Program-made: the position numbers and the translations under genes
Shown: piece after piece, positions 4,330 through 52,195 of the stretch
How positions within the stretch are numbered: position 1 is the stretch's first letter
How the letters are laid out: every line of letters starts with the position of its first letter
Notes under the pieces: generated by a model
Database searches by the model: none
What the model saw: the letters and a program-made list of their open reading frames with translations, nothing else
Told to the model about the DNA's origin: nothing
Assembly (NCBI GenBank): GCA_030612885.1
Contig: JAUWMZ010000003.1
Coordinates: forward strand, 5,578 to 69,577
Source: Candidatus Nealsonbacteria bacterium
GTDB lineage: Bacteria > Patescibacteriota > Minisyncoccia > Minisyncoccales > JAGMDC01
Direction of reading: 5' to 3'
DNA: 64,000 nucleotides

Positions 4330-4611
4330 ATGGCTGTTCCGAAACAAAGACACACTAAATCAAGAAGAAACAGGCGCCGAATGCATATTTTTCTTAAGGC
4401 GCCGATTTTGGTTAAGTGTCCAAAATGCGGGAAGCCGGTTTTACCTCATACTGTTTGTCAATTTTGCGGATACTTTAAAGGCAGGGAAGTAATTGATGTA
4501 ATGAAAAAGCTGACAAAAAAGGAAAAAAAGAAAAAAGAAAAAGAAATAGCAGCCAAAGAAGAAAAGAAAAAGGAAGAACCATTAAGCATGGAAGGACTAT
4601 CTAAAAAGTAA
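4330..4611 (+). CDS. rpmF: 50S ribosomal protein L32 with Lys/Glu-rich C-terminal extension
   Basis: MAVPKQRHTKSRRNRRRMH followed by a CPKCG...CQFCG zinc knuckle. The internal ATG at 4330 gives the canonical L32 N-terminus. Confidence 0.9.
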   Translation: MAVPKQRHTKSRRNRRRMHIFLKAPILVKCPKCGKPVLPHTVCQFCGYFKGREVIDVMKKLTKKEKKKKEKEIAAKEEKKKEEPLSMEGLSKK

Positions 4612-4784
4612 TTTTCAATTTTCAATTTTCAATTGCAACCCTACGGGGAGTCCAGAGCTTCGCTCTGTCCAGCAATGAAATCCCAATTTTCAATTTTCAA
4701 ATTTGATTATAATTGTTTGAAATTTGATACTTGGAGCTTCATTGGTGCTTGAAAATTGGTGCTTGGAATTTTAGCGAAGCGCTT

Positions 4785-10088: not shown

Positions 10089-10428
10089 ATTATTTATTAA
10101 CCCGGAAAGTCCTATTCTTATAACAGATTTCTTTTCCGGGAAGTAATTCTACTTTTGGTAGATATGAGTAAACTTCATCTTAGTGTATTATACCTGAATT
10201 TCACTCAAAGACAAAATTTGTACTATATTTGAAACAAGCGAAATCCCATCGGTTTCGTTAACACTGTTGATGTAAAAATGGGGTCAACTCTGTTTTTTAA
10301 GCTGAGGTTGCCAGCGAAAAGCTGGACAATTTTTATTTAAGCTTGACTATTTATTTAAAAAACTCTAGTGTGAAAATGAAAAGGAGGAACAAAGGTCGAG
10401 AATTTAGAATTTAATTGGAATACAAAAA

Positions 10429-11295
10429 ATGAAAAAATTAATTATATCTGCAATTATAATTGTTTCTTTATTAGTAACAGTAGGAACAGTATTCGCAGTA
10501 AAACCTGCTGGGAACCTAGCTGGGGCTGTAAAAGTTCTCTGGAATCTCTCTGGAGAGGTGATGCCTAGTCCGCCTTGGGGATTATCGGATATTCTTGGTT
10601 CTGACACAGCATCAAAGTTGATTGTTAACCAGCCAAATGGTAATACCGAAGTTGCAATTACAGGAGCAATGAATGGTCTACATCCGGATACAACCTACAC
10701 CGTATATCTATCAAACACATACGAACCATACGTTTATATGGGATGGGATATTACAGGTGACTGGGCGTTACGTCTTCATTACGGTAATAGTACTTTTGAT
10801 CATGATGTAGTCATTGATGATGTTCATCTTGACGGAAGTTTTGAAGGTACTGGTGGATATCCAGCTGGGGGTGAGCCATACAGCTATCCCTATAATGAGA
10901 TCATCGCAGGAACAATCGACGTCACGACAGAAGCAGTAACAATCCACTCAGTCTACGAAAATGGTTACTGGTATGAAGCAACAGGAACAATAGCTTCGGA
11001 TGGAACCATGAGTGGAACTTGGAGCGGTAGTGGTCAACCAGGTCCATATACTTGGGAGTCAATTCAGGGTCATGCTACAAAGACTCATACTGGTAGCACA
11101 GGTTGGTCCGGATTGTTTACTAACACAGTGCAACCGTTTACATTCATGACTAATACCTACGGAGCCGGAAGCTGGCATTTGAATCTTAAAGATGCAGACT
11201 TTTTTGGACCAGACACTTATAACCTTTCAGTATGGATAAATGAAAGCGGCGGAACAATGTTGATAAGCGACAGTTTCACAGTAACAGTCGATTGA
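10429..11295 (+). CDS. secreted protein, unknown function
   Basis: Signal peptide MKKLIISAIIIVSLLVTVGTVFA. Gly/Thr/Tyr-rich beta-type composition. Looks more GC-rich than its neighbours by eye. Confidence 0.6.
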   Translation: MKKLIISAIIIVSLLVTVGTVFAVKPAGNLAGAVKVLWNLSGEVMPSPPWGLSDILGSDTASKLIVNQPNGNTEVAITGAMNGLHPDTTYTVYLSNTYEPYVYMGWDITGDWALRLHYGNSTFDHDVVIDDVHLDGSFEGTGGYPAGGEPYSYPYNEIIAGTIDVTTEAVTIHSVYENGYWYEATGTIASDGTMSGTWSGSGQPGPYTWESIQGHATKTHTGSTGWSGLFTNTVQPFTFMTNTYGAGSWHLNLKDADFFGPDTYNLSVWINESGGTMLISDSFTVTVD

Positions 11296-16522: not shown

Positions 16523-16780
16523 ATGAAAAGCAAAAGATTTTTATCTACAATTGAATTAGCTAAAATTCTTGGTATTAGCCGAATAGCCGTTTTTAAAAAA
16601 ATTAAGAAAGGCGAAATTAAAGCAGTAAAAGTCGGTCGCAATTTTGTTATTGATAAAAAAGATTTAGGAGGAATTTTAGAGAAATCCTTAAATAAAAAAG
16701 CAAGGATAGATATTGATAAAGCAGTTAAAAGAGTAATTAAAGAATATGCAGAGGCGTTAAAATTACTTGGGACAACATGA
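16523..16780 (+). CDS. excisionase/MerR-type helix-turn-helix protein, probable antitoxin
   Basis: LSTIELAKILGISRIAVFKKIKKGEIKAVKVGRNFVI is an excisionase-family HTH. Its stop overlaps the Doc start (ATGA). Confidence 0.75.
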   Translation: MKSKRFLSTIELAKILGISRIAVFKKIKKGEIKAVKVGRNFVIDKKDLGGILEKSLNKKARIDIDKAVKRVIKEYAEALKLLGTT

Positions 16781-17199
16781 TTAAATCATTATCCATTGCT
16801 GAGGTTGAATATACTGCGTTTAGATTAGCGAGAGAATTAATGACATATGATGAGCCAATTCCTGATTTTACTACCCGCTTTCCTAATATTTTAGAAAGTT
16901 GCCTTGTAGTTCCTTTCCAAAGATTTGATAAAAAACCGCTCTATAGAGGAATTGTAGGAAAAGGAGCAATTCTTTTTTATTTAATGGTTAAAAATCACCC
17001 TTTTCAGAATGGAAATAAAAGGATCGCAATTACTACTTTATTTGTTTTTCTTCATAAAAATGAAAAGTGGCTAAAAGTTGATAATAAAGAACTTTACAAT
17101 TTTGCAGTTTGGGTTGCTGAAAGCCCGGCAAAATTAAAAAAAGAGGTGGTCTTAGCGACTGAACACTTCCTAAAAACTTATTTAATAATTTTGAAATAA
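16777..17199 (+). CDS. doc: Doc (death-on-curing) Fic-fold toxin
   Basis: Doc-type Fic motif HPFQNGNKRIAITT. About 140 aa, translationally coupled to the upstream HTH gene. Confidence 0.85.
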   Translation: MIKSLSIAEVEYTAFRLARELMTYDEPIPDFTTRFPNILESCLVVPFQRFDKKPLYRGIVGKGAILFYLMVKNHPFQNGNKRIAITTLFVFLHKNEKWLKVDNKELYNFAVWVAESPAKLKKEVVLATEHFLKTYLIILK

Positions 17200-17581: not shown

Positions 17582-18577
17582 GTGATGAAAAAGTTTTTTG
17601 TTTTTTTAATTTTAATTCTTTTTTTAGGATTTTTTATTTGGCAGGGGATTTATATTTCAAAAGATTTTACTTCTCTTGAGGAAAAATTCTTTCCAGTTGA
17701 GAAAGGCCAGGGTTTATTTCAAATTGGGGAAAATTTAGAAAAACAAGGTTTAATTAAGAGTAGGTTTTTATTTGATTTTTATGTAATTTCCAAGAAAAAG
17801 CAAAGCAATCTTCAAGCCGGCCAGTATTTGTTCAATCCCTCAATGACCATTGCTGAAATTGGAGAAAAAATAATTTCCGGTGATGTTTATAAAATAAAAA
17901 TTACTATTCCAGAAGGATTTACTCTAAAACAAACAGAAGAGAGATTAACCTTAAATTTAACGAGAAATGTTCTCGTTAATATTAAAATTAATGAGTTTAT
18001 AGATGAATATGATTTTTTGAAAGATGCGCCGAACAGCGCTTCGTTAGAGGGTTTTTTGTTCCCTGATACTTATTATTTTTATCCCCAAAGAGATACTGAA
18101 GAAATAGTTAAAGTTTTTTTAGATAATTTTGATAAAAAACTAACTTCTGAATTAAAGAACGAAATTCAGAATCAAGGCAAGACCATTTTTGAAATTATTA
18201 CTATGGCTTCAATGATTGAGAAAGAAGTGCTCACTATTGAAGATAAAAAAACGGTTTCCGGAATTTTATGGAAACGTTTGGAAAATAAAATGCCTTTGCA
18301 GGTTGACGCTACTATTACATATCTTACTGGTGGAAAGACAACAAAGATTGGCATTGAAGAGCTTAAAATTGATTCTCCATATAATACCTATAAATATAAA
18401 GGACTGCCTATTGGTCCAATTTGCAATCCCGGGCTTGACAGTATTTTAGCCGCGATTTATCCTAAAGATAGTGATTACTGGTATTATTTATCTACTCCTG
18501 AAGGCGAAACGATTTTTAGCAAGACCCTGAAAGAGCATCGTATAAACAGAGAAAAGTATCTTCACCCTGTTAAATAA
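17582..18577 (+). CDS. mltG: endolytic murein transglycosylase MltG (YceG-like)
   Basis: N-terminal TM helix, IPEGFTLKQ, LEGFLFPDTYYF, MASMIEKE and SPYNTYKYKGLPIGPICNPG motifs. Confidence 0.88.
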   Translation: MMKKFFVFLILILFLGFFIWQGIYISKDFTSLEEKFFPVEKGQGLFQIGENLEKQGLIKSRFLFDFYVISKKKQSNLQAGQYLFNPSMTIAEIGEKIISGDVYKIKITIPEGFTLKQTEERLTLNLTRNVLVNIKINEFIDEYDFLKDAPNSASLEGFLFPDTYYFYPQRDTEEIVKVFLDNFDKKLTSELKNEIQNQGKTIFEIITMASMIEKEVLTIEDKKTVSGILWKRLENKMPLQVDATITYLTGGKTTKIGIEELKIDSPYNTYKYKGLPIGPICNPGLDSILAAIYPKDSDYWYYLSTPEGETIFSKTLKEHRINREKYLHPVK

Positions 18578-18628: not shown

Positions 18629-19183
18629 ATGACTAATAAAATAGCAATGGTTATTGCGCATAGGGATTTCAGGGATGAGGAATATTTTATTCCTAAACGT
18701 ATCCTAACGACTAGGAATTTTGAAGTTGTTACAGTAAGCACTTTTAATGAAAAAGCTATTGGAATGCATGGAGGTGAGACCAAGATAGATGCAATAATAG
18801 ATAATTTAATGCCAGAGGATTTTGACGCTGTTTTATTTATTGGCGGTGCCGGAGTTATGGATGATATAGATAATCCTGAATTTCATAGAGTGGCTAAAAG
18901 AACTATTGAAAAGGGCAAGGTTTTGGGAGCAATCTGTGTTGCTCCAATGATTTTAGCCAAAGCAGGTGTATTGAGTGGAAAAAAGGCAACTATCTGGTCA
19001 AGTCCGATGAATAAAAATCCAATAAAAGTTTTGGAAGAAAATGGAGCAATTTATACAGATGAGATAGTGGTTATAGATGGAAAAATTATTACTGCTAATG
19101 GTCCTTTGGCTGCTGACCAATTCGCCCAAACAGTAGCAGAGGCCTTGACACAAAGTGGTGGGGGGTTGACAGGGGATCACTAA
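18629..19183 (+). CDS. DJ-1/PfpI family protein
   Basis: FDAVLFIGGAG...GKVLGAICVAPMILAKAGVLSGKKAT, with the nucleophile-elbow Cys. Confidence 0.85.
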   Translation: MTNKIAMVIAHRDFRDEEYFIPKRILTTRNFEVVTVSTFNEKAIGMHGGETKIDAIIDNLMPEDFDAVLFIGGAGVMDDIDNPEFHRVAKRTIEKGKVLGAICVAPMILAKAGVLSGKKATIWSSPMNKNPIKVLEENGAIYTDEIVVIDGKIITANGPLAADQFAQTVAEALTQSGGGLTGDH

Positions 19184-19193
19184 TTTGTATAAT
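19166..19193 (+). promoter_or_regulatory. consensus promoter TTGACA-N16-TATAAT for rplJL
   Basis: TTGACA at 19166-19171 and TATAAT at 19188-19193, overlapping the end of the DJ-1 gene. Confidence 0.65.
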
Positions 19194-19199
19194 TAAAAA

Positions 19200-19292
19200 T
19201 ACCGCAGACAATAGGCAAGTAAGACCTATTTAGGTAAATAAGTAATCATTGATTATTTATTATTGTGTCTGCGGTAATACGCAGTTTTTTTT
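19200..19292 (+). promoter_or_regulatory. rplJ (L10) leader with alternative antiterminator/terminator hairpins
   Basis: Long-range pairing ACCGCAGACA (19201-10) with TGTCTGCGGT (19266-75) competes with CTGCG-gtaata-CGCAG (19269-84) plus T8 (19285-92), which abuts the rplJ ATG. Confidence 0.6.
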
Positions 19293-19811
19293 ATGGCAAA
19301 AACAAAAGAGCAAAAACAAAAAATTTTAGATGAACTGAAAGAAAAAATAAAAAAGCAGAAATCAATGATTTTTGTGGATTTTTCTGGTTTAGAAGTAAAT
19401 GCAATTACTGAATTAAGAAAGGAAATGATAGAAAAAAATTGCGAATTTAAAGTAGCTAAAAAAACTTTCATAGAAATAGCGCTTAAAGATTTTAAAGAAG
19501 ATATAGCTAAAAAAGCAAGGGAGTTACAAGGAGAGATTGGTATTGGCTTTGGTTATAAAGATGAGATTATGCCTTTTAAAATTTTAGGTGATTTTTCCAA
19601 AAAGCAGGAGAATTTAAAATTATTAGCCGGATTAATAGGCAAGGAGTTTTTAGAGCAAGAGCAAACGATTGCTATATCTGAATTACCAACAAGAGAAGAG
19701 ATTTTAGCAAGAATAGTAGGAAGCATAAGCGCTCCAATTTCCAATTTTGTAAATGTTTTACAGGGAAACATTAAAGGTCTGATCTATGTTTTGGCAAAAG
19801 CCAAAACATAA
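19293..19811 (+). CDS. rplJ: 50S ribosomal protein L10
   Basis: 172 aa with family-typical [19 protein letters not shown]...FKVAKKT. Directly upstream of rplL. Confidence 0.92.
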
Positions 19812-19828
19812 AAAATTTAATCAAAACT

Positions 19829-20278
19829 ATGGCTGAAGAACAAAAAAAAGAAACTTCTGAAAAAGAGGAGCCAAAAGAAGAGAAGGAGGTAAAAATTCCG
19901 GAAAAATTCAAAGATTTAGTTGAAAAAGTTGAAAAGATGTCTGTTTTGGATTTGGCAGAATTAGTCAAGATTTTAGAGAAAAAGTTTGGTGTCTCTGCTG
20001 CAGCTCCAATTGCTGCTGCTCCAGCCGGCGCTGCTCCTGCTGCTCAAGCAGAAGAAAAAACTGTCTTTAATATTGAGCTCACTGGCATTGGTGATAAGAA
20101 AATTGAAGTAATTAAGGTAGTAAAGGAAATTACTGAAAAAGGATTAAAAGAAGCAAAGGATTTAGTTGACGCTGCGGCAAGTTCTCCACAGATGATTAAA
20201 GAAAATGTTAAAAAAGAAGAAGCAGAGGAGATGAAAAAAAAGATAGAAACAGCTGGCGGAAAAGTAGAGTTGAAGTAA
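19829..20278 (+). CDS. rplL: 50S ribosomal protein L7/L12 (with N-terminal acidic extension)
   Basis: Ala/Pro hinge [21 protein letters not shown] and C-terminal domain [24 protein letters not shown]...[18 protein letters not shown]. Confidence 0.93.
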
Positions 20279-20329
20279 CATTTCCCGCTTTGCCCTTGAC
20301 AAATTCTAAAGGTTTGTTATAGTTGGAAT

Positions 20330-20476
20330 ATAGCAAAAAGCATAGTAGGTTTACTATGCTTTTTACATTAAGGGTGCGGGGTTCGAACTCCTCACCCTCA
20401 CAAAAGAGTCATTTCTGGGCGTCGGCTAAATGAATTTTTTTCCTCCTTAGTTCGACGCCCAAAAATGGCTCTTTTT
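20330..20476 (+). ncRNA. candidate structured RNA unit (three hairpins, CCUCC-containing loop)
   Basis: Promoter-like TTGACA (20296) -N16- TGtTATAGT (20318). Hairpins at 20335-64, 20371-98 (AGGGTGCGGGGTTCGAACTCCTCACCCT) and 20405-72 (20-bp stem, 28-nt loop containing TTCCTCCTTA), then TTTT. No ORF. Confidence 0.35.
20335..20364 (+). terminator. hairpin terminator after rplL
   Basis: AAAAAGCATAGTA-ggtt-TACTATGCTTTTT. Confidence 0.65.
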
Positions 20477-20805
20477 AGTAAGCTTGCCCTGTGGTAGAAA
20501 TTTGACCAAGAGTAAAAAATCCGCCGAGAATAGAAATTCTGACGGACAAAATAGGCAAATTATTACGACATAATCCAGCATTTATCCCGCAATGACTTTA
20601 AATATTCAGAGTATAGTATGTGGCTGGTCCTTTGCTAATTCTTTTTAAGAGTTTTGTTGACGCAAGTTCTTTTTAACTTTTGCTTCTATTTATATTATAT
20701 CGTGGGGATTAACCCTTGACAAGGTTTCTGGCTTGTGTAAGATAAATAATACAGAAAAGCGTTAGGGGATATTGACTTTTGTTTTGATTAAGTATAGTAT
20801 AAAAA

Positions 20806-20951
20806 AAGAAAAAGATAAAATTATTTAGCGGAGGAACTAAATAAATTTTCAGTGAATTTAGAATCATTGATATTAAATAATAATGATTTAAGAATATCAG
20901 GACTTCTTCGCAGAATTCAAATATGTTTTTGAAATGCGAAGGGGTTTTTTT
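20806..20951 (+). ncRNA. candidate sRNA or leader ending in a strong terminator
   Basis: Promoter-like elements at 20716 (TTGACA-N16-TAAGAT) and 20772 (TTGACT...TATAGT). Terminator CTTCGCA...TGCGAAG at 20906-41 followed by GGG and T7. Only trivial ORFs of 11 aa or fewer start with ATG. Confidence 0.4.
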
Positions 20952-21030
20952 ATTTTAAAAATAACAAAGGTCGGGTTGTAAGTGAGCCAAAAACTTACAA
21001 AAGATTAAAAAATTAATTTAGAACAAAAAT

Positions 21031-22119
21031 ATGAACAAAAAAATATTAGTTAGTTTAAGTGTAATTGCAGTTGTTGCCGCTATTGGCATTGGTGGGACAG
21101 TAGCTTACTTTAGCGACACTGAAACCAGCGAAGCTAATCTTTTCACTGCAGGCACTATAGATATTCATGTTAAGGGTGATAATTTTACTTGGACAGAGGG
21201 AGCACTATTAGATGATATGAAGCCTTGTTATACTGATTACATTAATTTCACGATTTATAATGACGGAAGCGACCCAAATCCAGTTAATGTTTGGAAGCAT
21301 TTAATACTTGGCGTGGAAGAAACTGGCGCAGTTTCTGAACCAGAATGTGATGAGCAAGGTGGAACTTGGACTGGTCCTGTAAGCGGGTGCTTTTGGAATG
21401 GTGCTGTTGATGACAATAATATTTCCAGCATCATAGATTATGATCTTATAGTATGGGTGTATGATTATTGCGATAGATTGATTTGGTGGCAGACCATTTA
21501 TGACAAAGACATAACTGTAGCAGAAATTGCTTGCAAAGAAATCTATTTAGGCATGATTCCGGTTAATGGATATATGGAAGTAGAACAGAGTTACCATATG
21601 CAGGATTATGAATCTACAAACTGGGCGCAAGGCGATATTATGCCTTTCGATATTGAGATTAAAGGTATTCAACTTCGCGGCGAAGCATGGTTGGATTTCA
21701 AACAAGCAGAAAAGAGTCCAGAAGAGTATTGGAAAGTTAAGAATCCAGGAAATCCTGCTGGTACCTTGACTTATATAGTTAAGCACCCAGAGTTTGATTA
21801 TGGATTTACTGCAAGCGGACTTCAAAACAACACAGAATATAGCTTGATTTACTATGCTGATCCATGGCCAGGAAATAACCCTGGTGCTTTAATTGGAACA
21901 GCAACAACTGATGGAACAGGTAATATTGCTATGTCAGATTCTGTTGAATTAAATATGAGTTTTCCAGCCCCTGGCGATCTTAATCATCCAGACGGCGCTA
22001 AGATTTGGTTAGTTCCATCCAGTGATTACGATGATAGCACTAACGAATTAACGGCTTGGAATCCTGATACTTATTTGTTTGAAATCGGTTTGATTTGGTA
22101 TGAAGATACTGATTTATAA
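21031..22119 (+). CDS. TasA/camelysin-like secreted fibre subunit with SipW-type signal peptide, paralogue 1
   Basis: MNKKILVSLSVIAVVAAIGIGGTVAYFSDTETSEANLFTAGTIDI, then DMKPCYTDY, NPVNVWKH and QSYHMQDYESTNWAQGD, plus an extra C-terminal domain of about 150 aa. Confidence 0.8.
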   Translation: MNKKILVSLSVIAVVAAIGIGGTVAYFSDTETSEANLFTAGTIDIHVKGDNFTWTEGALLDDMKPCYTDYINFTIYNDGSDPNPVNVWKHLILGVEETGAVSEPECDEQGGTWTGPVSGCFWNGAVDDNNISSIIDYDLIVWVYDYCDRLIWWQTIYDKDITVAEIACKEIYLGMIPVNGYMEVEQSYHMQDYESTNWAQGDIMPFDIEIKGIQLRGEAWLDFKQAEKSPEEYWKVKNPGNPAGTLTYIVKHPEFDYGFTASGLQNNTEYSLIYYADPWPGNNPGALIGTATTDGTGNIAMSDSVELNMSFPAPGDLNHPDGAKIWLVPSSDYDDSTNELTAWNPDTYLFEIGLIWYEDTDL

Positions 22120-22292: not shown

Positions 22293-23402
22293 ATGAACAA
22301 AAATATAGCTATTAGTTTACTTGTAATTTCTGCCATAGCAGTTGTTGGTGTTGGCGGAACTATTTCCTATTTTAGTGACACTGAAGCAAATGTAGGCAAT
22401 GTAATTGCTGCTGGTATTGTTGATATTAGCATTGCTCCGGGAGGAGACACAGTATCTTTGCCAGCTAAAATTACTGATATGAAGCCCTGCAAAACAGAAT
22501 ATGTAACAATCAATGTTACTAATGAGGAAAACTCTAATCCTGTTGATGTATGGAAGCATATTGATAATGTAGAAACCGAAGAAAATGGAATTACAGAGCC
22601 AGAGCAAAAATGGTATGATGCTAATCCCGGTCAAGCACCCAAGAATGACATTGATACTGTTATAGAATATGATATGACTGTTAATGGAGAGGTTGTCATT
22701 GATGTTAATGACGGTATAACCCTTGATAATATTGAAAGTTATTATATTTATTTGGGTCGTTTAGAGCCATGTGAGACGATGGAAGTTATCCAAAGTTATC
22801 ATATGAAAGGTGATACTGAAAACTGGGCTCAAAGCGATAAAGTAACCTTTGATATGGAATTCTTGGCTCAGCAGATTGGCGCACCAGCACCTACAAACAA
22901 TCTTGATTTTGTGAACATCGGAGATCCAATCAATGAGGCAGGAAAAGACAGAATGATGGCTGGTTGGAGTAATACTGTATGGCCTGGTGGAGCAGGAACT
23001 TGGGGAGGCGGAGATGACGGCACTATCAGAACAGTTTCCGCTGGTGATGATGACACCTATAAGACAACCTATCAGTCAGAGCCACCCGCTACTAATGATG
23101 TAGATTTTGCTACCATTGATGTTGATTTTGGCGCAGGCAGTAATTGGCTTTATATCAGGCATTTAGACGGTCAAGCTGACGGAGCTGGCAATGACGATGC
23201 ATTTAAGGTTTATGTAAATGATGTTGCGATTGCTACATATTTAGACCAATATTCTACTGAAACATGGGTAACCAGCAAATTTGATACTACTGGTTATACT
23301 GGAATTCAAACAGTTAAGATTGAATTACTCGGAGGCCATTGGTCAGGTTATGCCACTTGGGGCCAATTAGGAATTTCTTGGATGAAGACATTACCTTTAT
23401 AA
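22293..23402 (+). CDS. TasA/camelysin-like secreted fibre subunit with SipW-type signal peptide, paralogue 2
   Basis: MNKNIAISLLVISAIAVVGVGGTISYFSDTEANVGNVIAAGIVDI, then DMKPCKTEY, NPVDVWKH and QSYHMKGDTENWAQSD, plus a different C-terminal Gly/Asp/Trp-rich jelly-roll-like domain. Confidence 0.8.
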   Translation: MNKNIAISLLVISAIAVVGVGGTISYFSDTEANVGNVIAAGIVDISIAPGGDTVSLPAKITDMKPCKTEYVTINVTNEENSNPVDVWKHIDNVETEENGITEPEQKWYDANPGQAPKNDIDTVIEYDMTVNGEVVIDVNDGITLDNIESYYIYLGRLEPCETMEVIQSYHMKGDTENWAQSDKVTFDMEFLAQQIGAPAPTNNLDFVNIGDPINEAGKDRMMAGWSNTVWPGGAGTWGGGDDGTIRTVSAGDDDTYKTTYQSEPPATNDVDFATIDVDFGAGSNWLYIRHLDGQADGAGNDDAFKVYVNDVAIATYLDQYSTETWVTSKFDTTGYTGIQTVKIELLGGHWSGYATWGQLGISWMKTLPL

Positions 23403-23495: not shown

Positions 23496-24011
23496 ATGAA
23501 ACCTTTAAAAATAATTTATTACATTTTTATTGCCTTTATTGCTGTGATTGCCATTTTGCTGATTATTTCTGTTTTTCCGATTACAGGGAATTATAAATTT
23601 ATGATTGTCCAGTCAGGTTCAATGGAACCAGCGATTGAGATGGGGAGCGTGGTAATGGTTAAACCGGTTGATAGTTATAAGATTGAAGATGTCATTACTT
23701 TTACAAATCCGAAAAAGCCAGGCGAATCAATTACTCACAGAATTTACGATATGAAAGTCAATGAGGGAGTTCCTGTTTATATCACTAAAGGTGATGCCAA
23801 TAATGCTCCTGATACAAGGGAAATACAAGAGAAAGATATTATTGGAAAAGTTTTGCTGGATATTCCTTATCTCGGTTATGCTGTTGATTTTGCCCAGAAG
23901 CCATTAGGATTTGCTTTGATTATTATTGTTCCAGCCGTGATTATTATTGGCGACGAGATTAGAAAAATCTATAATGAGTTTAAAAAGAAAAAAACAAATG
24001 AAATGGAATAA
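23496..24011 (+). CDS. sipW: type I signal peptidase, SipW-like (S26B, Ser/His type)
   Basis: N-terminal TM helix, SGSMEP (catalytic Ser), ITHRI (His), KGDANNAPD, C-terminal TM helix. Embedded among proteins carrying the AYFSDTE leader. Confidence 0.85.
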   Translation: MKPLKIIYYIFIAFIAVIAILLIISVFPITGNYKFMIVQSGSMEPAIEMGSVVMVKPVDSYKIEDVITFTNPKKPGESITHRIYDMKVNEGVPVYITKGDANNAPDTREIQEKDIIGKVLLDIPYLGYAVDFAQKPLGFALIIIVPAVIIIGDEIRKIYNEFKKKKTNEME

Positions 24012-25971
24012 AAGAATTGTAAAAACCTCTATTTTGAGAATTGTTGTGCTTATGATGATTGTTGGGCTTAACTGGTCCGGGATTTCGGCTATTGGTCAAA
24101 CTTTAGCTTATTTTAATGATACTGAAATTTCTGACAATACAAGCATTACTGTCGGCAGTTTAAATTTTAGTTTAAGTTCAGATAGTGATTTTTCTCCTTT
24201 AGTCACCCCGAGTCAATCTGCCAGTCGCAGTATTGATGTTATAAATGAAGGCAGTTTAGATTTTCAATATCAAGTATCTGCCAGTGATTTTTCCGGTGAT
24301 ACTGAATTTTGCAATGCTTTAGAGCTTATAGCTAATTTAGATGGCGGAGACACAGAATATACAGGAAACTTGACAGATTTTAGTTATAATACTGGAGAAT
24401 TTTTTGATCCAGAAAACTGGCAATTTACAGCCAGTTTGCCTGATGATGTTTCTGACACGCTTGAAAATAAAACCTGCAGTTTTAAATTTATCTTTGAAGG
24501 CGTTCAGCTTGGTGAATGCGCTGGTTTTAGCGATATAGAAGAAATTGAAAACACAATAACTTCTGGAGAGTGGGTAATTAGAGAAGAGATGAAAATTAAC
24601 AAGGTTTATTATGATGTAGATTCAGAGCATGGGATTGAAGGCGATAACGAATGGGTTGAGCTTTATAATCCAACTGACGCACCAATAGATATTTCTAACT
24701 GGAAAATTTGCGATAATACTTCTTGTGATACTATCCCTGTTTTAAATTCTATTTCAGGCAATGGTTTTGCTATAATTACTGCTCAAGATACTACCTGGGA
24801 TTATTGGAATATTCCATCAGGAGTAGAGAAGATTGTTTTGGGAGATGATATTGGTAATGGCTTATCTGATGATGGTGACAGATTGATTTTGAAAAATGTT
24901 AGTGGATACGAAATTGACGCGATGAGTTATGGAACTGATACTTACGTTTTTGACCCTGCTTGCCCTGATGTTGACGAAGGGCATATGCTCGGCAGGGTGC
25001 CGACAGGTTTGGATACTGATTTAGCATCTGACTTTCAAGATTTAGCACCGCCTACCGTATCTGTTTCTTATTACAGCGGCACCTGGTATTGCGGACAAAC
25101 TTATACAATTAATTGGACAGCTGTAAATAATAATGGTGATGATAATGAATTATTGATTGATATTGTTTATATCACTGATAATGATAGAAATGGAATAATT
25201 AGTGATAGTGATAATGTTTATCTTGTGGCTGATGATATAGCAAATTCAGGAAGCTATAATCTTCATATATGCGGTGATTATTGTTATTACGGTTATGTCT
25301 GGGTCAAAGTAATTGCTTATGGTCCGGAGAACTTTATGGTTCAAGCCAGTGATACAGGTCCTCGAGTTTGGGAACCGCCAGCTCCTGAAAATGAATTGTT
25401 TGATATGTCAACTATGTGTCCATTTGAACTTCCTGTAGAAGAGGGGACAGAAGAAGTAGAGGAACCAACTGATGTTGATGAAGAGATATTTGATGATACA
25501 ATTGAAGAGGAAGATACGATAATTGATTTGCCAGCTCTTGACCCTGTTGATACAGTTACCTCTGTTCAAGACGGAGTTAATATTGTCGATGAGGAAGATA
25601 TAGTTGAACCTGATACTGGAGAAGTTTTAAATGAGGAGCCAGTTGAAGAAATTCCAGATGAAGTTATAGAAGATGAAGCTGTTGTTGAGGAAGAAACTAC
25701 TGGAGAGGAAATCACAGAAGAAATTCCAGAAGATGAGCCAGTTGATGAACCGGCCGATGCTGACGCTGATGCTGATGAAGAAGTCCCAGCAGTGACAGAT
25801 GAAGAAATCACAGAAGTTGTTGAGGAGCCAGAACCAATTATTGAATCTGTTGAGGAAGAAATAGTTGAGGAAATAATAGCTGTTATAGAAGAACCAGCCA
25901 CTGTACCGGAGGATATTCCTATTGATGATACTGAAGAAAGCCCTGAAGCAGACAATGATATTCAAGAATAA
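23998..25971 (+). CDS. TasA-like N-domain + lamin-tail domain (LTD) + Ig-like domain + ~200-aa polyacidic tail protein
   Basis: Start is ambiguous (TTG 23947, ATG 23974 or ATG 23998). Leader ...GISAIGQTLAYFNDTEISDNTSITVGSLNF. LTD signature NKVYYDV...GDNEWVELYNPTDAPIDISNWKICDN...GDRLILKN. The C-terminus is almost entirely E/D/V/I/P/T. Confidence 0.75.
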   Translation: MKWNKRIVKTSILRIVVLMMIVGLNWSGISAIGQTLAYFNDTEISDNTSITVGSLNFSLSSDSDFSPLVTPSQSASRSIDVINEGSLDFQYQVSASDFSGDTEFCNALELIANLDGGDTEYTGNLTDFSYNTGEFFDPENWQFTASLPDDVSDTLENKTCSFKFIFEGVQLGECAGFSDIEEIENTITSGEWVIREEMKINKVYYDVDSEHGIEGDNEWVELYNPTDAPIDISNWKICDNTSCDTIPVLNSISGNGFAIITAQDTTWDYWNIPSGVEKIVLGDDIGNGLSDDGDRLILKNVSGYEIDAMSYGTDTYVFDPACPDVDEGHMLGRVPTGLDTDLASDFQDLAPPTVSVSYYSGTWYCGQTYTINWTAVNNNGDDNELLIDIVYITDNDRNGIISDSDNVYLVADDIANSGSYNLHICGDYCYYGYVWVKVIAYGPENFMVQASDTGPRVWEPPAPENELFDMSTMCPFELPVEEGTEEVEEPTDVDEEIFDDTIEEEDTIIDLPALDPVDTVTSVQDGVNIVDEEDIVEPDTGEVLNEEPVEEIPDEVIEDEAVVEEETTGEEITEEIPEDEPVDEPADADADADEEVPAVTDEEITEVVEEPEPIIESVEEEIVEEIIAVIEEPATVPEDIPIDDTEESPEADNDIQE

Positions 25972-51355: not shown

Positions 51356-52195
51356 ATGGAAGGGAATAATAATTCAAAACAATATATTACTGATTTTAGG
51401 GAAGTGATGGATAAAGTTTTGAAGAGTTTTGATGAAGTTAATTTGAAAGAAATTGATGAAAGAAATAAAAAACTCAATTCTTTGAGGCCTTTACCGTCAG
51501 GGTCGTTAAAATCTTTAGAGGAAAAACTTGCTATTGATGAAATTCATAATTCCACGGCAATAGAAGGGAACACTTTAACTTTGGGCGAAACAGCTTTGGT
51601 AATAGAAAAAGGAATTACTATATCTGGCAAGCCATTGAAAGACCATTTAGAGGTTTTAGGATATAATAAGGCCCTGAAATTTATTAAAGAAATCGTCAAA
51701 GAAAAAGAAAAATATCCATTAAACGAAGATTTAATGAAAGAAGTTCATAAAATTTTGTTTAAGCCGATGGAAAATTTAGAAAAAGAATATGATTATGGTA
51801 TTGGATTTTATAGAAAAAACCAGCGATTTATTAAAGGTTCTCATCATATTCTGCCTCGACCAGAAAAAGTACAGGATTTAATGGAAGAATTTGTAGAGAT
51901 TATGAACCGTACAAATACTCATCCTATAAAAAGAGCTGTTTTATTTCATTTCGGCTTTACTCATATTCATCCTTTTACTGATGGCAATGGCAGAACAGCC
52001 CGGCTTTTAATGAATTTAATGCTTTTGCGAGATAGTTATCCGATTACTATTATTCCTTTAGAAAAAAGAGGTATATATATCAATGCTTTAGAAAAAGCAT
52101 CGGTTCAACATAATGGCAAAGATTTTTTGAGTTTTATTCTTGAATGCATAAATGATGTTTTAAACCTTTATTTTAGTATTGTAAATCAAAAATAA
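51356..52195 (+). CDS. Fic family protein (AMPylase-type) with intramolecular inhibitory motif
   Basis: Fic motif HIHPFTDGNGRTARLLM, with an upstream (S/T)xxxE(G/N) motif in NSTAIEGNTL. Confidence 0.88.
   Translation: MEGNNNSKQYITDFREVMDKVLKSFDEVNLKEIDERNKKLNSLRPLPSGSLKSLEEKLAIDEIHNSTAIEGNTLTLGETALVIEKGITISGKPLKDHLEVLGYNKALKFIKEIVKEKEKYPLNEDLMKEVHKILFKPMENLEKEYDYGIGFYRKNQRFIKGSHHILPRPEKVQDLMEEFVEIMNRTNTHPIKRAVLFHFGFTHIHPFTDGNGRTARLLMNLMLLRDSYPITIIPLEKRGIYINALEKASVQHNGKDFLSFILECINDVLNLYFSIVNQK

Follow-up and report, generated by a model that had tools for sequence, protein, structure and literature searches.

A conserved, probable structured RNA gene and a probable leader-ORF attenuator between rplL and a TasA-like operon in a Candidatus Nealsonbacteria genome

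What occupies the 752-bp gap (20279-21030) between the ribosomal protein gene rplL and a TasA-like fibre operon in a stretch of 64,000 nucleotides of Candidatus Nealsonbacteria DNA (contig JAUWMZ010000003.1, positions 5,578 to 69,577; this whole stretch is hereafter the window)? A preliminary description, made from the letters of the window, saw a noncoding island with two promoter-led structured units and proposed that it encodes one or two regulatory RNAs or a long leader. Every feature it listed (promoter-like sites, three hairpins, a CCTCC loop, a GGAGG motif and a terminator) is where it was placed, most of these features are conserved in relatives, and the two promoter-led units are indeed separate: unit 1 at 20296-20480 and unit 2 at 20716-21030. 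The gap indeed has no open reading frame (ORF) of 60 aa or more on either strand, the longest being minus-strand ORFs of 44 and 52 aa. However, it is not wholly noncoding: it holds a conserved 26-codon leader ORF (20852-20932) and the relic of a Fic-family gene. The proposal of regulatory RNAs or a leader survives in part, in that unit 1 resembles a small RNA (sRNA) gene, whereas unit 2 would be a translated leader of the fibre operon, an attenuator and not a regulatory RNA. We give even weight, for and against, to the combined reading of the island as a mosaic of a small RNA gene, a decayed Fic gene end and a ribosome-mediated attenuator of the TasA-like/SipW operon.

Does the gap contain more structure than can be expected by chance? 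Site counts alone show no excess: chance would give 17.6 promoter-like and 3.5 terminator-like sites, and 19 and 4 are observed. What sets the features of the units apart is their folding energy, well beyond that of shuffled sequences (z = -9.4 for 20329-20482 in unit 1 and z = -4.4 for 20806-21045 in unit 2), together with their recurrence with compensatory changes, the latter being decisive. For this comparison we took the DNA around the closest L7/L12 homologues, found through rplL synteny (except L012, found through its pattern only); contigs L001-L003 come from the same strain and are identical to the window. The preliminary description had proposed such a comparison of rplL-linked relatives, and in them the elements do recur with compensatory changes.

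The core of unit 1 is a 28-bp hairpin on the plus strand (20402-20480; stem 20402-29 / 20447-75, then U5). Its long arms (20402-24 / 20453-75, 23 nt) are 91% complementary, CTAA/TTAG extends the pairing to 28 bp, T5 follows, and the loop comprises 17 nt (20430-46, AUGAAUUUUUUUCCUCC). Across seven sequences 94.9% of the alignment cells in the stem are paired and 10 of the 28 pairs show compensatory change; none of 500 shuffles reached this pairing, and sliding the partner by one column reduces it to about 50%. Read as RNA, the hairpin requires 14 G·U pairs on the plus strand and 4 on the minus strand, an excess that agrees with the direction of the promoter described below and thus favours the plus strand. 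We also considered an RNA from the minus strand, which folds equally well, but both the G·U counts and the promoter orientation favour the plus strand. The U-tract after the core hairpin is U5-U7 in the window, L004 and L012 and weak in L007, L008, L013 and L042; the terminator consensus scan skips this hairpin, whose loop exceeds 8 nt.

Conservation is strongest at the apex. A 28-nt segment, GGCUAAAUGAAUUUUUUUCCUCCUUAGU, is identical in six lineages, and because four of these were found by synteny and not by pattern, the identity is not an effect of ascertainment. In a seventh lineage, L042, the apex has AUG changed to ACG and one U changed to G, both in the 5' part of the loop, and UUUUUUCCUCCUUAG (U6CCUCCUUAG) is kept; in L043 the basal stem UUUCUUUGGGCGCC is kept and UUCCUCC lies in a larger apex. 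An unpaired seed such as base-pairing sRNAs display is therefore present as U6-7CCUCC in the loop of seven lineages and as UUCCUCC in the L043 apex, and the deepest constraint appears to fall on this U-rich CCUCC segment. The loop ends in UUUCCUCCUUAG, and its CCUCCUUA presumably matches the 3' tail of 16S rRNA. The apex can also be read as a mini-ORF, AUG AAU UUU UUU CCU CCU UAG (MNFFPP), whose frame occurs in six lineages and ends Pro-Pro-stop in the manner of an arrest or leader peptide. We give this reading next to no credence: there is no Shine-Dalgarno (SD) sequence upstream, the AUG lies within a 17-nt loop closed by 28 bp, and the synonymous positions are invariant, which fits constraint on the RNA and not on a peptide. 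L042, with ACG for AUG, keeps both the hairpin and CCUCCUUAG, and we rejected the mini-ORF.

Is the hairpin transcribed in its own right? Upstream of it lies P1 (TTGACA-N16-TG-T-TATAGT, 20296-20323, plus strand), an 11/12 match to consensus plus the TG. In the form TTGACA-N16/17-TGnTATAAT, P1 is kept in eight lineages (the window, L004, L007, L008/L011, L012, L013, L042 and L043), at distances of 5 to about 190 nt from the rplL stop, and the intervening sequences are unrelated across lineages. Because P1 persists while its flanks diverge, it appears to be under selection, and the earlier suspicion that the promoter-like sequence at 20296 could be fortuitous can be set aside. As far as sequence can tell, the independent promoter expected of an sRNA gene, here of sigma-70 type with an extended -10, is thus present in all eight lineages.

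Between P1 and the core lie two smaller hairpins. Hairpin 1 (A5-GCAUAGU-loop-ACUAUGC-U5, 20335-20364, plus strand; 13-nt arms, 100% complementary) begins about 10 nt after P1, and in six lineages its stem is invariant and its loop of 6-7 nt variable; it is unique within the window and missing in L042. With a stem of 8-13 bp, U5 and just 2 G-C pairs it is not called by the terminator scan. In the window it probably terminates rplL transcription, and, being downstream of P1, it would also form the 5'-terminal stem-loop of P1 transcripts. One could therefore ask whether unit 1 is just the 3' untranslated region (3'UTR) and terminator region of rplL, with P1 not a working promoter: in the window, L004 and L008 no terminator-like structure comes between rplL and hairpin 1 with its U5, and promoter-like sites are no more numerous here than expected by chance. 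We find this highly improbable, given that P1 is kept in all eight lineages while its surroundings and its distance from rplL vary, that a separate G+C-rich hairpin lies between rplL and P1 in several lineages, and that a covarying stem of 28 bp and an invariant loop of 17 nt are not accounted for by a terminator.

Hairpin 2 (GGUUCGAACUCC, 20371-20398, plus strand) is a T-arm-like stem-loop found in two of the seven unit-1 lineages, the window and L013, between which one pair has changed compensatorily (GGGUG/CACCC versus GAGUG/CACUC); it is missing in L004, L008, L012 and L042, and L007 has different hairpins at that site. All three hairpins ascribed to unit 1 by the preliminary description are thus present, but this one is only an optional insert. 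Its 11-bp stem, loop UUCGAA and following CACA resemble an acceptor/T-arm minihelix, and it is conceivably a processing signal. We rejected GGTTCGAACTCC as a piece of a tRNA or tmRNA: ARAGORN and RF00005 find five tRNAs elsewhere in the window and none here, and the best pairing by inspection has a hexaloop with a G·U at the loop-closing position, with no T-arm having G53-C61 and a 7-nt T-loop.

Several observations concern the surroundings of P1. The spacer of P1 (20299-20317) contains an inverted repeat that covaries across lineages (ACAAA..TTTGT versus ACAGAT..ATCTGT). This repeat reaches into both the -35 element and the TG of the extended -10, and could be an operator site or, in RNA reading through from rplL, a hairpin. 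The rplL-P1 interval of some relatives (L007:5172-5350, L008:5454-5515, L013:541-700) has a palindrome, TGTCATATGACA, and 2-3 direct repeats, TGTCATACCCTA, and that of L042 (1101-1215) has five GGGGTGTGACA repeats with inverted partners; these arrays, absent from the window, are candidate operator arrays or nested hairpins. At P1 in L007, L012 and L013, and at P2 (a unit-2 promoter, below) in L007, the G-run 3' arm of a long hairpin abuts the -35 box (CCCC...GGGG-TTGACA), resembling a fusion of the promoter to an insulator or to a terminator lacking its U-tract; at the corresponding site both P1 and P2 of the window read CCCTTGACAA. In L043, a more distant relative, P1 would direct the synthesis of another RNA (4490-4630), about 110 nt long, which contains five GGAGG-like motifs and has an ACCACC/GGUGGU closure plus U7; the long CCUCC-bearing hairpin lies 100 nt beyond it.

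How widespread is unit 1? It occurs as a single copy per locus and always directly after rplL: in L004/L005 (L12 identity to the window 87%), L013/L014 (84%), L007 (82%), L008-L011 (79%), L042 (73%) and the pattern-found L012, with a remote version in L043/L044 (71%). It is not present after rplL in L015, L017 or L045. A covariance model (R1) run over the window and the loci of the relatives found no second copy besides a half-copy in L004. Scans for the exact loop returned 2 species among 185,579 GTDB species representatives, 1 true match among 23 in Joint Genome Institute (JGI) metagenome contigs, and no true match in viral contigs, where two raw matches were ordinary ribosome-binding sites on the other strand. 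The family is therefore narrow in distribution, comprising eight lineages. We found no earlier description of such an RNA in the literature. The Rfam search suggested by the preliminary description, run with Rfam 15 on 20279-21030, matched no family at gathering thresholds (L10 leader, Lacto-rpoB, 6S, SRP, tmRNA, tRNA, RsaE and YrlA included), and with E up to 10 returned just eukaryotic snoRNA/miRNA-type noise at 7-27 bits against thresholds of 40-117.

Taken together, these comparisons identify unit 1 as an element that is conserved in structure and preceded by a conserved promoter of its own. It is very likely a functional structured RNA gene, a new family of a known kind, whose plus-strand transcript would span about 20330-20480. 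Base-pairing sRNAs with C/U-rich, anti-SD-like loops include RoxS/RsaE of Firmicutes, CcsR or 'cuckoo' RNAs and alpha-r14-type RNAs with CCUCCUCCC loops. Like these, unit 1 has its own promoter, a hairpin-presented pyrimidine motif complementary to the SD sequence and, in some lineages, a 3' U-tract after the stem-loop. Unlike them, it is a single 28-bp stem with a 17-nt loop and not several short hairpins, it sits at a fixed site after rplL and matches no Rfam family, and its targets are only candidates.

The long inverted repeat of unit 1 could act mainly at the DNA level, as a preferred site for the recombination or integration of cassettes, those with Fic genes among them, and the conserved apex would be its crossover core. 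One point in favour of this proposal is L004, where the 3' half of unit 1 is present as a perfect 48-bp direct repeat (1144-1191 and 2349-2396). Each half-site (ATGAATTTTTTTCCTCCTTAG to the T-run) starts at ATGAA within the loop and runs through the whole T-run, and the repeats bracket a 1157-bp segment with a promoter and a 354-aa Fic/DOC protein, an intact unit 1 remaining on the left; the insert contains no integrase. Further points in its favour are the Fic relic just downstream of unit 1 in the window and the variation between lineages of the genes after the hairpin. Nevertheless we consider a primarily DNA-level role quite unlikely. The arms covary instead of keeping their sequence and the G·U pairs are biased to one strand, which points to a folded single strand, and such a strand with a conserved promoter in front of it argues for RNA. 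There is also no integrase nearby and no matching attP in the viral contigs. Use as an integration target is moreover typical of RNA genes, and thus compatible with unit 1 being one. tRNA and tmRNA genes serve as integration sites for genetic elements, and the L004 arrangement looks like a site-specific insertion of the kind known at the 3' halves of tRNA genes: a repeat of the 3' part of the RNA gene, from loop to 3' end, brackets the insert and an intact copy stays behind. In contrast to those sites, unit 1 is neither tRNA nor tmRNA, the 1.2-kb insert carries a Fic gene and no integrase, and there is a single example. An integron attC site was also considered and rejected: by inspection the stem base has no GTTRRRY, just GTTCGAC or GTTGGCG, and unit 1 is conserved at its apex and not its base, occurs as one site per locus and has no integrase among its neighbouring genes.

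What lies between the two units? On the minus strand, 20513-20669 is a convergent Fic-family gene relic, consisting of the last 22 codons (20604-20669), the stop codon and a terminator hairpin (20521-45) of a gene that L004 has in intact form. The window at 20513-20660 is 71% identical to L004 2398-2537 over 148 nt of DNA, and the translation of 20604-20669, ELASTKLLKRISKGPATYYTLN, shares 11 of 22 residues with the C-terminus of the L004 protein bearing the Fic motif HPFADGNGR (tblastn, E 8e-5). Homology thus identifies the roughly 230 bp between the units as a decayed convergent Fic gene end and not a regulatory element. A hidden protein gene was tried and rejected: neither of the minus-strand ORFs (44 aa and 52 aa) is conserved, and the only coding signal in mid-gap is the 22-codon relic. 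Further Fic-like sequences occur in the window at 16777-17199 and 51491-52000.

Unit 2 begins with tandem plus-strand promoters supported by a promoter scan and by conservation: P2 (20716-43; TTGACA at 20716, N16, TAAGAT) and P3 (20772-20800; TTGACT at 20772, N17, TAGTAT overlapping TATAGT). The promoter sites at 20716 and 20772 and the GGAGG at 20830 had all been placed correctly. The P2 block is kept and duplicated in L007 and L008, and P3 is kept in L007, L012 and L042. Downstream, a hairpin (UUAUUUAG-[CGGAGGAA]-CUAAAUAA, 20821-20844, plus strand) displays an SD-like GGAGGA in its loop. It is found in ten leader copies (window 20826, L007 5871, L008 9311, L011 5686, L012 902 and 1986, L013 1150, L015 3493, L042 1465 and L043 4887), each of them equipped with a promoter; the loop of the hairpin has 7-9 nt and always reads N-GGAGGA-(A), and its stems covary: UUAUUUAG/CUAAAUAA in the window, AUCUCG/CGAGAU in L043 and GCUUAG/CUAAGU in the first L012 copy (L012a).

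In all ten copies a GUG stands 16-17 nt after the GGAGG and opens a reading frame, in the window the 26-codon plus-strand leader ORF at 20852-20932 (VNLESLILNNNDLRISGLLRRIQICF*). The frame is open for 22-33 codons over the ten copies; in the eight copies tested it is stop-free over 22-28 codons, whereas the other two frames have 1-7 stops. Shuffled leaders are open with a probability of 0.05-0.11 per copy, and the copies fall into four or more groups that are dissimilar to one another. That the GUG is the start follows from L007 and L013, which have in-frame stops immediately before it. The short ORF of an attenuator leader, with a start and an SD-like element and open in homologues, is thus present. 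The peptides are alike within groups (VTIKSLxTLNNxWxIxKxIxLKTSL) and poorly conserved between them, and we found no third-position bias in the substitutions of the leader ORF, which indicates that the peptide itself is weakly constrained; translation as an act, rather than the peptide, probably matters.

The leader ORF ends in an intrinsic terminator on the plus strand (20903-20951), with a 10-bp stem (20903-12 / 20935-44), a structured 22-nt loop and U7; the terminator reported earlier at 20906-20951 is this structure, its T7 running to 20951. The leader stop of the window (20930-32) lies inside the terminator loop, 2 nt ahead of the 3' arm, and in L042 and L043 the leader frame runs through the U-tract. 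A stem with U6-7 overlaps the end of the leader ORF in every copy examined, the arrangement expected of an attenuator. Beyond it, the proximal 5'UTR on the plus strand (20964-21030) consists of ACAAAGGUCG, a hairpin (20976-83 / 20993-21000), AAUUUAGAAC and an A-rich tract, and the TasA-like gene then starts at an AUG (21031) with no SD sequence. AAAGGTCG and a hairpin likewise precede the TasA-like genes of L007, L012, L015, L042 and L043, and occur also at 10389 in the window. Within the window, two genes for signal-peptide proteins have common 5'UTR motifs (10340-10432 and 20964-21030): ACAAAGGTCG ... AATTTAGAA ... an A-rich tract and an SD-less ATG.

Because the leader module stands ahead of TasA-like genes in six lineages and ahead of small-ORF clusters in L008, L011 and L012, it appears to be a reusable control cassette in this clade. 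From its geometry, unit 2 is likely to be a leader-ORF attenuator that depends on the ribosome. Known ribosome-mediated attenuators include the E. coli pyrBI leader and bmrB-bmrCD, among other leaders with an upstream ORF and a terminator found by Term-seq. Unit 2 shares with them the order of promoter, short ORF, terminator overlapping the 3' end of the ORF, and operon, as well as an open frame that is kept while the peptide sequence is poorly conserved. It differs in that its SD sequence is exposed by a hairpin loop, always 16-17 nt from the GUG, in that no antiterminator or stalling signal was identified, and in that it precedes an operon for TasA-like fibres and a SipW-like peptidase.

How might the two units act, and might they act together? 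In the mechanism we propose, P2 and P3 would feed the hairpin with its SD sequence in the loop, the GUG leader ORF and the intrinsic terminator. A ribosome that follows RNA polymerase closely while translating the leader would cover the terminator arms, and transcription would continue; if the leader were left untranslated, the terminator would form and transcription would stop at 20951. The unit-1 RNA would act via its exposed pyrimidine loop by pairing with purine tracts of the GGAGGA type, and its likeliest partner would be the GGAGGA that the leader, 380 nt downstream, displays in a loop, plus the leader copies in related genomes. Pairing could take place in trans, or in cis when P1 transcripts read through, and a unit-1 loop blocking the leader GGAGGA would prevent leader translation and keep the operon off.

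In six of the eight lineages unit 1 and the leader lie together in a single intergenic region, and each displays its motif in a loop. Duplexes between them have predicted energies of -12.7 to -18.5 kcal/mol, which corresponds to z = -2 to -4 when leaders are shuffled, with a complementarity of 7-9 bp, loop to loop. The pairing of the CCUCC loop with the GGAGGA of unit 2 that the preliminary description had noted is hence possible, but it is no better than generic SD/anti-SD complementarity, and of the other complementary sites that it named, the one at 10383 belongs to an ordinary 5'UTR and the one at 27817 is a ribosome-binding site of the usual sort. Specific pairing of the unit-1 loop with the leader GGAGGA is accordingly a tentative proposal, which we hold to be possible without favouring it. 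The full scheme goes further: a dedicated riboregulatory pair in which an RNA mimicking the 16S tail would kiss the GGAGGA loops of leaders and turn terminators on before TasA-like operons and other cassettes, the RNA gene also serving, like a tRNA gene, as a landing site for Fic cassettes. As a whole we hold it to be rather unlikely.

A number of observations weigh against the combined reading of the island and the pairing proposed in it. The 30 best sites for the loop in the window do not include the leader, the top ones being purine-rich coding stretches, and no extended target or near-complement of the loop was found in about 170 kb of related loci. L015 carries the leader module without unit 1 beside rplL, and unit 1 is unchanged in L004 and L008 though other genes lie downstream. 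A decent U-tract follows the core hairpin in just 3-4 of 7 lineages, and hairpin 1 with its U5, situated between P1 and the core, could halt P1 transcripts. In unit 2, folding identified no antiterminator structure, and the spacing of 16-17 nt from GGAGG to GUG is unusual, being far from the initiation optimum. All evidence, finally, comes from only eight lineages of a single clade.

Alternatively, unit 1 could be a functional RNA that does not regulate the leader, acting instead as a mimic of the 16S 3' tail or as a protein- or ribosome-binding RNA, for example a decoy that titrates SD-like sequences globally or a binder of a factor that recognises the 16S 3' end. Its link to rplJL would then reflect ribosome-related control, and unit 1 does accompany rplJL in every case, irrespective of the gene that comes next. 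Its loop has CCUCCUUA at the end, six lineages agree in all 28 nt of the apex, tighter than a short seed requires, no specific loop target was found in the window or related loci, and L015 keeps the leader without unit 1. On the other hand, L042 varies the 5' half of the loop, so that the full apex is not universally required, and in L043 the motif sits in a different apex. We rate this explanation as unlikely.

If unit 1 does pair with the leader, there are parallels in plasmid systems in which an antisense RNA controls the translation of a leader peptide, CopA/CopT-tap-repA of R1 and Inc RNA-repY-repZ of ColIb-P9. Common to these and to our proposal are the loop-loop kissing of a small RNA with a hairpin bearing the ribosome-binding site of the leader, and a downstream expression that would require leader translation. 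In contrast to the plasmid RNAs, unit 1 is not encoded antisense to its candidate target, its complementarity is just 7-9 bp plus patches, the proposed output is terminator read-through and not translational coupling, and the locus is chromosomal and belongs to the Candidate Phyla Radiation (CPR).

The window is low in G+C (34%), of the Parcubacteria/Minisyncoccales genome type, and its nearest named relatives are metagenome-assembled genomes labelled 'Candidatus Parcubacteria bacterium' and 'Minisyncoccales bacterium'. Upstream of the gap are the genes for YceG (17582-18577) and DJ-1/PfpI (18629-19183), rplJ (19293-19811) and rplL (19829-20278); rpoB is absent from the entire 64 kb window. 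Downstream are two TasA/camelysin-like genes (21031-22119 and 22293-23402), a SipW-like signal peptidase (23496-24011) and an LTD protein (23947-25971), the ORF of which starts from TTG and overlaps that of the peptidase. Proteins of the TasA family assemble into extracellular fibres both in Bacillus and in archaea (PMC9674648, PMC9245690). Ahead of rplJ, a 12/12 consensus promoter (TTGACA-N16-TATAAT) lies inside the end of the DJ-1 gene (region 19166-19292), and a terminator-like hairpin (19269-84) with T8 lies 8 nt before the rplJ start; together they are a possible attenuator of the L10-leader type, one that matches no Rfam model. In L045 the YceG-DJ-1-rplJ-rplL block occurs twice, inverted, on one contig (578-3192 and 3758-6409), either a true palindromic duplication or an assembly artefact.

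CPR bacteria have tiny genomes and few classical regulators, and to our knowledge almost nothing is known of RNA-based regulation in this group (Patescibacteria). The impact of the present locus is limited by the narrowness of the family and by the uncultured state of the organisms. Within these bounds it offers a well-supported new structured RNA family, a leader-peptide/terminator module before a TasA-like/SipW fibre operon, and a concrete idea of how the RNA and the leader module may engage in crosstalk. GGAGGA motifs exposed by hairpin loops, with a constant spacing to a GUG, would constitute a control cassette that this clade appears to have put to use repeatedly.

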